IMG/VR virus record: IMGVR_UViG_2671180429_000001
From: a virus
Taxonomy: Duplodnaviria > Heunggongvirae > Uroviricota > Caudoviricetes
DNA length: 7,323 nt
Strand: one strand, 5' to 3'
Below, one piece after another: positions 1 through 3,000 of this stretch. Made by a program: the position numbers. Position 1 is the first letter of the stretch. Each line of letters starts with the position of its first letter.

Positions 1-3000
1 CAATGCGCTTACTGATGCGGAATTACGCCGTAAGGCCGCAGATGAGCTTGTCCATATGACTGCGAGAATTAACCGTGGTGAGGCGATCCCTGAACCAGTA
101 AAACAACTTCCTGTCATGGGCGGCAGACCTCTAAATCGTGCACAGGCTCTGGCGAAGATCGCAGAAATTAAAGCTAAGTTCGGACTGAAAGGAGCAAGTG
201 TATGACGGGCAAAGAGGCAATTATTCATTACCTCGGGACGCATAAGAACTTCTGTGCACAGGACGTTTCCGCGGTAACAGGCGCAACCGTAACCAGCATA
301 AATCAGGCTGCGGCTAAAATGGCGCGGGCAGGAATCCTGATCATTGATGGTAAGGTCTGGCGAACGGTGTATTACCGGTTTGCTACCAGGGAAGAACGGG
401 AAGGAACGGTGAGCACGAACCTGATTTTTAAGGAGTGTCGCCAGAGTGCAGCGATGAAACGGGTATTGGCGGTATATGGAGTTAAAAGATGACCATCTAC
501 ATCACTGAGCTAATAACAGGCCTGCTGGTAATCGCAGGCCTTTTTATTTGGGGGAGAGTAAATCGTGGCTGAGTTGATTTTCTCTGCATTGAGGCTTCTC
601 GGTGCTATGTGGATGGTGGCGACGTTCATTGTGGTTGCTGGCTGTTTTGTCCGGTTGGTAGGCGAAGGTAAAGACCTGGTGGGTGTGCTTTTCGGTAGCA
701 TTCTCCTGTGGGTGATTATCGGTGTTGCGCCTGTCGCTGTAGCAAAAATGGCGTGGCGTTTTGTGAGTTGAACTGAGGGTAAGTACCGATGGACGAATCA
801 AGAAAGCAGTTTGAAGAATGGTTTGAAAATTACACCGGATGTGATCCTAAAAATAAAATATACGCCAATATGGTTGAGATGTATTGGCAAGCGTGGCAGG
901 CATCGCGAGCAGCTTTTGAAATTGAGCTGCAAAAGCCAAAGAAAGGCCCACTTCCCGGTGATTATCACATTGGCTATGACACAGGTGCAGAATCACAATA
1001 CGAAAGCGATGTAGAGGCCATCCGCACTGCTGGAGTCAAAGTGAAGGAGTGAGTATGAGCGCATACGAAGAAATCATGTTAGCCCTGCGATTCTTTTTCG
1101 GTGTGGAAGAAGATGAAAACGTAAATGAGATTATCGGGCAAGACCATGACCAGATAGGGACTATTGCAGCTGCACTTGACGATTACAGGAGCGTAAATGG
1201 TGAGGAAACTAACGTTTGAACTAAGAAGCCCCATCCATCAGCAGAACGCCATTCAAGCTATCCAGCAAATTCTTCCAGACCCAACCAAACCAATCGTAGT
1301 AACCATTCAGGAACGCAACCGCAGCTTAGACCAAAACAGGAAGCTATGGGCCTGCTTAGGTGACGTCTCTCGTCAGGTTGAATGGCATGGTCGCTGGCTG
1401 GATGCAGAAAGCTGGAAGTGTGTGTTTACCGCAGCATTAAAGCAGCAGGACGTTGTTCCTAACCTTGCCGGGAATGGCTTTGTGGTAATAGGCCAGTCAA
1501 CCAGCAGGATGCGTGTAAGCGAATTTGCGGAGCTATTAGAGCTTATACAGGCATTCGGTACAGAGCGTGGCGTTAAGTGGTCAGACGAAGCTCGACTGGC
1601 TCTCGAATGGAAAGCGCGATGGGGAGATCGGGCAGCATGACTATCAAATCAAATACGCCAGCACACGACAAGGACTGCTGGCAAACGCCGCTTTGGCTTT
1701 TTGATGCACTGGATATTGAGTTTGGATTCTGGCTGGATTCGGCAGCGAGCGACAAAAATGCTCTGTGTGCTCACTGGCTAACTGAGGCCGACGACGCGCT
1801 AAATTCTGAGTGGATAAGCCACGGGGCAATCTGGAATAACCCACCGTACAGCAATATCAGGCCGTGGGTGGAAAAAGCCGCTGAGCAGTGCATACAACAG
1901 CGACAGACGGTAGTGATGCTTGTGCCAGAGGATATGTCAGTCGGATGGTTCAGCAAGGCTCTGGAGAGTGTCGACGAAGTTCGCATTATCACTGATGGAC
2001 GGATTAATTTTATCGAACCATCGACGGGGCTGGAGAAGAAGGGAAACAGCAAAGGCTCCATGCTGCTGATTTGGCGACCGTTCATCAGTCCTCGACGGAT
2101 GTTTACTACCGTATCCAAAGCGGCATTGATGGCGATCGGGCAGGGCGTCAGAAGGGCGGCATGAGGCGACAGCGAAGAAGTATCACCGACATCATCTGCG
2201 AAAACTGCAAATACCTTCCAACGAAACGCTCCAGAAATAAACGCAAGCCAATCCCAAAAGAATCTGACGTAAAAACCTTCAACTACACGGCTCATCTGTG
2301 GGATATCCGGTGGCTAAGACATCGTGCGAGGAAAACAAGGTGATTGACGCGATGATTTATTCGGGGCTATATTCCTCACGCGCCAGCAAAATCTGGCGTC
2401 GGGATTAGCACCCCGGATGTTTACGGAGCGATATGAGACGCGCCAGCGTCTTTTTTTCATATCGTTTGCACAGTCACATTCGCGATTTATGGCGGGCTGT
2501 GTGGGGGAGCCGAAAGGCTCGCCGGTTTCCGTACCCGGTAGTGCTAACCCCGCACAGTTCGCCACCACGATGATTAGCACCTGACGGTGGCGATAATGTC
2601 CAAATGTACGGAGTTATCGTTATGACCACTCAAATCTCTGTTGAAACTCTCTCCCCGATCACCCATAACCAGATTCCTGTTATTACCACCGAACTTTTGG
2701 CGCAGCTTTACGGCACTGAGCCGGTGCGTATTCGCCAGAATCATCATGAGAACAAAGTACGCTTCGTTGAAGGGAAACACTTTTTCAAAGTTGTTGGTAA
2801 TGACCTTAAAGAATTGCGGGTCGCTTTAAACTACTCACAAAATCCAGTTTCACCCAAAGCCCGCTCCCTCATCCTCTGGACAGAACGAGGCGCAGCACGC
2901 CACGCCAAAATGCTCGAAACCGATCAGGCATGGGATGTGTTCGAAAAACTGGAAGACTGCTATTTCAGCCAGTGCGAGAAAAATACTGGCAAACAAGAGA

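Follow-up and report, generated by a model that had tools for sequence, protein, structure and literature searches.

The gene located between ninB and ninE in the analyzed stretch of phage DNA (7323 bases, hereafter the window), here referred to as dam, very probably encodes a SAM-dependent GATC methylase of the T1/HP1/VT2 Dam family that is effectively M.EcoVT2Dam and that belongs to the early-right operon. The window corresponds to the nin region and the toxin locus of a lambdoid Stx1a prophage and matches the chromosome of E. coli O103:H2 PV16-126 (NZ_AP038987.1) at 100% identity, save for a deletion of 170 nt in ninG. On the + strand, it successively carries the end of P, ren, three small ORFs, ninB, dam, ninE, a small-RNA module, two antirepressor genes, ninG, ninH, Q and stx1A/stx1B. 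No restriction-enzyme gene was found in these 7.3 kb: the neighbours of dam encode NinB, NinE, Ant, a KilAC antirepressor, NinG, NinH, Q and Stx1AB, and the remaining three upstream ORFs (56–87 aa) match PHROGs without known function. Within the window, dam is, as the initial annotation had proposed, an orphan methyltransferase gene devoid of any adjacent restriction enzyme gene.

The dam ORF extends on the + strand from the ATG at 1637 to the TGA at 2162–2164 (1637–2164, 528 nt, 175 aa) and is intact, exactly where the initial annotation had placed an adenine methyltransferase. A GTG start at 1577, proposed by a mechanical ORF list, was rejected. The family profiles begin at residues 4 (Pfam) and 2 (NCBIfam) of the protein starting at ATG-1637 and all annotated dam homologues have a length of 175 aa; therefore, the start is assigned to 1637. 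The upstream neighbour, ninB (orf; 1197–1640, + strand), which encodes a recombination mediator, matches Pfam PF05772 (NinB) with 183 bits and shows 94% nucleotide identity to ninB of lambda. The downstream neighbour, ninE (2161–2343, + strand), matches PF05322 (NinE) with 148 bits and is, in nucleotide sequence, 96.7% identical to ninE of lambda from position 2168 on. Direct reading of the + strand shows that dam overlaps both genes by an ATGA: (i) the ATG of dam (1637–1639) overlaps the TGA of ninB (1638–1640) at 1637–1640, an overlap that had already been noticed, and (ii) the ATG of ninE (2161–2163) overlaps the TGA of dam (2162–2164) at 2161–2164. A Shine-Dalgarno-like run, GGGGAG (1621–1626, + strand), was also read directly within the ninB coding sequence, 10 nt upstream of the ATG of dam, and a ribosome-binding site is annotated at the equivalent spot in the phage 434 record. 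The ATGA overlaps suggest that translation of dam may be coupled to that of ninB and ninE. Such overlaps are the norm throughout nin regions (PMC8022706).

All profile searches assign the protein to a single family. The search with a Dam model of the PF05869 type, which had been recommended as a check, gave a full-length match of 218 bits (cut-off 28.1, E = 8e-65), residues 4–169 aligning with positions 1–167 of the 169 of the profile. The NCBIfam equivalog TIGR01712 (phage N-6-adenine-methyltransferase) matches with 264.2 bits (cut-off 97.05, E = 3e-79), residues 2–168 covering positions 1–165 of its 165, and the protein also matches PHROG 111. Judging from these scores, the PF05869 and TIGR01712 matches are not due to chance. 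When all 1.84 billion cluster representatives were scanned, 8734 relatives were retrieved at E ≤ 0.001. The conservation of individual residues was examined on an alignment of 50 diverse relatives that includes T1 Dam and has a mean column identity of 29%. Six residues are invariant in this alignment (T17, D34, N68, P70, R122 and F125) and 11 others are conserved in at least 90% of the members (W15, P18, A37, N41, W59, P69, Y71, L95, W104, N137 and S141), all of which are present in the window protein.

Four segments, all encoded on the + strand, carry most of these residues. The N-terminal signature C-W-Q-T-P (aa 14–18, 1676–1690) includes the invariant T17 and the highly conserved W15 and P18 (≥90%). 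The segment L-D-S-A-A-S (aa 33–38, 1733–1750), with the invariant D34 and with A37 conserved in at least 90% of the relatives, is placed at the end of strand β-1, which spans residues 31–36 in the model; it is the putative equivalent of motif I and would bind AdoMet. The catalytic motif IV, N-P-P-Y (aa 68–71, 1838–1849), directly follows a β strand (64–68); N68 and P70 are invariant whereas P69 and Y71 are conserved in at least 90% of the members. The initial annotation would have been refuted if this motif had been misplaced, but the alignment of the 50 diverse members puts it in the conserved catalytic column. Both the WxTP signature and the D-x-A-A-S segment resembling motif I lie ahead of motif IV, with no domain between the motifs in the model. 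Lastly, the C-terminal segment G-R-I-N-F ... G-N-S-K-G-S (aa 121–141, 1997–2059) includes the invariant R122 and F125 as well as N137 and S141 (≥90%); it forms a hairpin that is the obvious candidate for a DNA-contacting element in this enzyme, and its pLDDT is lower (72–82).

The AlphaFold2 model of the protein (pLDDT 85) consists of a single compact domain of Rossmann type without any separate recognition domain. Its best fold matches are N6-adenine methyltransferases, including CamA and M subunits of type I systems, and its size is about that of the catalytic core of these enzymes; the protein thus has the class I AdoMet methyltransferase fold of the N6-adenine type. The search of solved structures by sequence gave only matches at chance level (SdiA, E 0.18) and detected no family member. 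Two other classes of Dam enzymes were considered and rejected. The Dam enzymes of the alpha class (E. coli Dam, T4 Dam and DpnM) belong to another sequence family (PF02086), have about 240–280 aa and carry a dedicated DNA-recognition domain, whereas the Pfam scan of the window protein found no PF02086 (MethyltransfD12) match and the protein is devoid of such a domain. The GATC specificity that the two groups share looks convergent. The MT-A70-type Dam-like methyltransferases of phages (Serratia phage BZS1, HK639 type) are described as a separate family (PMC7556043); the Pfam scan found no MT-A70 match in the window protein, whose motif is NPPY and not of the DPPW type.

The same protein is already present in many phages. 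Its sequence coincides fully (100% identity) with that of an ORF of phage Nil2 and with RefSeq WP_000153270.1, annotated as 'phage N-6-adenine-methyltransferase', and copies that are at least 99% identical occur in 140 phage records. The proteins of HK97 (NP_037744), 434 (UMO75323), Nil2, Phi24B, SfI and many lambda-like phages are 99–100% identical to it, these copies differing by synonymous drift and by zero or one residue change. With orf32 of VT2-Sakai (BAA84315), it shares 174 of 175 residues, the sole substitution (I60 in the window, V60 in VT2-Sakai) being conservative and located in a variable column. Both genes are of equal length, fill the same ninB–ninE slot and have the same ATGA junctions; in VT2-Sakai, orf32 is flanked by the nin146 (ninB) and nin60 (ninE) homologues and bears the annotation 'similar to DNA methylase'. 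The two phages nevertheless differ: the window phage carries stx1 and VT2-Sakai stx2, their ninB alleles are different, the DNA homology beginning only at position 1630 of the window, and VT2-Sakai has three tRNA genes between Q and stx2A whereas there is none between Q and stx1A in the window. ARAGORN found no tRNA gene in the whole window, including the interval between Q and stx1A (5153–5650).

A scan of the whole VT2-Sakai genome showed that orf32 is its only ORF of at least 100 codons with a (D/N/S)PP(Y/F/W/H) motif. Because it is the sole ORF of this size with such an N6-methyltransferase motif, orf32 must correspond to the enzyme that bears the REBASE name M.EcoVT2Dam. Radlinska and Bujnicki reportedly cloned this enzyme in 2001, from a Shiga-toxin phage. 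In the article of Forde and colleagues (PMC6602927), which cites Radlinska & Bujnicki 2001, M.EcoVT2Dam is stated to be 'known to target 5′-GATC-3′'. T1 Dam (M.EcoT1Dam) is likewise cited as GATC-specific and Gm6ATC-modifying (PMC4996451). This founding member of the family (YP_003925) belongs to the same Pfam and NCBIfam families as the window protein; the two are 33% identical along 158 aa (E 2e-26) and their WxTP, DxAAS and NPPYS motifs align. T1 Dam differs in having 237 aa, about 45 additional residues at its N-terminus and an insert ahead of the C-terminal hairpin, and it belongs to a virulent phage in which the gene context is different. The comparison of the proteins therefore leads us to consider the window protein as being effectively the already characterized M.EcoVT2Dam, its predicted GATC activity being drawn from the literature.

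The GATC specificity has to be weighed against the idea of an active adenine methyltransferase whose specificity would be relaxed or other than GATC and which would serve for broad anti-restriction instead of duplicating the activity of the host Dam. An enzyme of 175 aa without a separate target-recognition domain could fit this idea, and M.Btr190III, a relative 35% identical to T1 Dam, methylated GATC and many related sequences when cloned (PMC4996451). Furthermore, other adenine methyltransferases of prophages, Hia5 and M.EcoGII, are non-specific. However, M.EcoVT2Dam, which is identical at 174 of 175 residues, is reported to be GATC-specific, and Hia5 and M.EcoGI/GII are listed, for the same genomes, as enzymes distinct from M.EcoVT2Dam (PMC6602927). 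The methylome of the STEC strain 95NR1, which harbours two copies of M.EcoVT2Dam, includes only GATC, CTGCAG and CRARCAG, and CRARCAG was assigned to a different enzyme (PMC6602927). A relaxed specificity is thus highly improbable, and a GATC methylase remains the preferred reading. Membership of the non-specific Hia5 type was also dropped on the basis of published descriptions, the M.EcoGI/GII homologues being distinct from M.EcoVT2Dam in the O111 STEC methylome; the paper of Drozdz et al. makes no mention of T1, HP1 or VT2 Dam.

In lambda, the space between ninB and ninE is filled by ninC and ninD, as the initial annotation had indicated. These two genes occupy the same slot with the same overlapping junctions but are unrelated to dam, NinC being annotated as PAPS-reductase-like and NinD as a small protein. 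Homology with lambda, at 94% along ninB, is lost precisely at the stop codon of this gene (1640) and reappears 7 nt into ninE (2168), there at 96.7%. Since this gap is bounded by the ninB stop and by the very beginning of ninE, dam is a clean alternative cassette for the slot. Homology with VT2-Sakai begins at position 1630, seven bases before the ATG of dam. Taken together, the breakpoints with lambda and VT2-Sakai indicate that the ATGA junctions coincide with mosaic boundaries, and such ATGA-bounded mosaicism is the standard behaviour of lambdoid phages. The gene had initially been described as inserted between ninB and ninE: this position is exact, but the word 'inserted' is better replaced by that of an ordinary alternative of the lambdoid mosaic, not a special event.

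The fact that dam adjoins ninB across phages, with breakpoints at the ATGA borders, could point to a functional link with recombination; alternatively, a relaxed specificity of this enzyme devoid of a recognition domain could alter the induction of the Stx prophage. In the first version, rapid removal of hemimethylated GATC sites by the methylase might prevent the host MutH/MutL mismatch repair from cutting Orf/Red recombination intermediates. The NinB papers examined (RAGNYA fold and Orf family) report no link between NinB and a methyltransferase. Gene adjacency being what speaks for it, this pair of proposals appears improbable, and an ordinary mosaic cassette encoding a GATC methylase is retained.

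Several other features were observed around the cassette. An insertion of about 650 nt (559–1205) compared to lambda separates the ren/tR2-like region from ninB and includes three small ORFs (565–771, 789–1052 and 1049–1219) that match PHROGs 1165, 343 and 1603, respectively, all of unknown function; a Glyoxalase_4 match of the ORF 789–1052 was disregarded because its score (21 bits) is below the cut-off (27). This segment is among those that are absent or divergent in most Stx1a phage records, which cover the window at 85%. Downstream of ninE, a small-RNA module (2344–2603) precedes an ant-like gene. Rfam models above their gathering scores locate c4-a1b1 (2367–2419), isrK (2380–2456) and a C4 antisense RNA (2485–2569) there, all on the + strand, and the module also includes a promoter-like sequence (TTGACG-18-TATATT, 2344–2373) and a terminator-like hairpin (2435–2452). 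It looks like an antirepressor control unit of the P1/P7 immI type or of the Gifsy-1 IsrK type located upstream of Ant (2604–3302). Phage copies of this allele are at most 90% identical, save for one Actinobacillus phage record at 98%. Downstream of stx1B, Rfam detected STnc100 (6964–7177, + strand, 191 bits) and the anti-GcvB sRNA AgvB (7179–7238, − strand, 56.6 bits, just above the threshold of 56 bits).

Furthermore, ninG (4099–4534) is broken, with a junction at about 4318/4321 where 170 nt are absent compared to the prophage of O103:H2 PV16-126. Its remnants are two ORFs (4099–4353 and 4334–4534) that match positions 1–74 and 134–192 of Pfam NinG. When the junction was used as a query, all eight complete E. 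coli genomes among the matches listed aligned in two pieces spanning 351 nt; therefore, none of these eight genomes has the ninG deletion.

The ninB-dam-ninE block is widespread: at 96–97% nucleotide identity, it is found in HK97, 434, SfI, Sf6, many lambda-like isolates and most of the Stx phages. The dam gene itself (at least 95% identity) is present in 1566 of the 5426 complete E. coli genomes (about 29%), with up to five copies per genome. More distant relatives also exist in other protein architectures. Six proteins of 500–690 aa with 46–51% identity (P0139, P0140, P0144, P0147, P0156 and P0241) carry the Dam domain at their C-terminus and are therefore fused to a large N-terminal portion whose type is unknown; in another one (P0152, 505 aa), the Dam domain is located at the N-terminus instead.

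The comparison of the window allele with the VT2-Sakai, HK97 and 434 copies revealed 10–12 synonymous differences versus one non-synonymous difference, i.e., a dN/dS of 0.02–0.03. This value points to a strong purifying selection and argues for a working protein; dam would thus have been kept functional. One exception was found in Sf6 (NC_005344, 637–1164), where an unannotated copy of dam, which differs from the window allele by three non-synonymous and six synonymous differences, carries an in-frame stop in place of codon 50 (E50) and is apparently a pseudogene. This stop indicates that dam is dispensable for at least one laboratory-propagated phage.

Such a loss raises the question of whether dam could be carried without any function by the window prophage, as a silent gene or an inactive remnant. 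Besides the in-frame stop of the Sf6 copy, several prophage methyltransferases are devoid of activity in their native hosts (PMC6602927, PMC4996451), and the break of the neighbouring ninG by the 170-nt deletion shows that the region is not wholly intact. However, the dam ORF is unbroken, none of the family-invariant residues has been lost, and the dN/dS is at odds with a dead gene. Moreover, the copy of Phi24B (CDS 17559–18086), which is 100% identical to the VT2-Sakai protein and 99% identical to that of Nil2, is expressed: its protein was recovered from cultures of lysogens, and induction significantly alters the level of its transcript (PMC3342100). Silence in an uninduced lysogen would furthermore result from the design of an early operon and is not the same as being defunct. 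A functionless dam is therefore extremely unlikely, and the preferred reading remains that of a functional GATC methylase. For the window copy, both the GATC specificity and the expression in lysogen cultures are extrapolated from the literature on near-identical copies.

No promoter-like or terminator-like site was found within ninB-dam-ninE. Upstream, a terminator-like hairpin is located at 518–541, in a segment homologous to the ren-ninB interval of lambda, and a terminator is annotated at the corresponding place in the phage 434 record. In the established model of lambda, the nin genes are read from pR after N antitermination. By analogy with this model, dam would belong to the early-right (pR) operon, downstream of the tR2-like terminator. 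Because of this position without a promoter-like site of its own and of the ATGA junctions with ninB and ninE, we infer that it would be made mainly after N-mediated antitermination, i.e., during lytic growth or induction.

The product would be a small single-domain SAM-dependent DNA N6-adenine methyltransferase whose mark, Gm6ATC, would be that of the host Dam. In this enzyme, the flipped-out target adenine would sit in the NPPY loop, and AdoMet would be bound by the D34-x-A-A-S segment. The benefit of dam in E. coli is not obvious, since the host already methylates GATC. In the window, 23 GATC sites were observed compared to 27.9 expected from the base composition; there is no notable depletion or enrichment, the window being too short for a true test. 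Virion DNA of lambda and P22 is under-methylated by the host Dam (PMC8022706). The most likely use of dam would be to keep the fast-replicating phage DNA fully methylated at GATC. This full methylation could (i) protect the phage in hosts with restriction of the MboI/DpnII type or with a weak Dam or none and (ii) remove hemimethylated GATC sites. The candidates for its biological role are anti-restriction, full methylation of replicating DNA and control of lysogeny. The latter contribution is a candidate by analogy with the requirement of 933W for the host Dam, as cited in PMC3342100. The two roles put forward in the initial annotation, anti-restriction and an influence on prophage induction, are thus hypotheses of a general kind. 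More generally, the role of phage Dam enzymes is described as 'still not well understood' (PMC7556043).

Overall, the initial reading of this gene as a phage adenine methyltransferase of Dam type is supported by its family, its catalytic motif and its context, and the same protein had already been described: dam of the window is an already known, correctly annotated and very common phage gene. The useful outcome of this work is a negative one, as the case can be closed as that of a correct annotation. It is a general and long-known question, extending beyond this window, why lambdoid phages should retain a GATC methylase of their own, under strong purifying selection, when their host is already Dam-positive.
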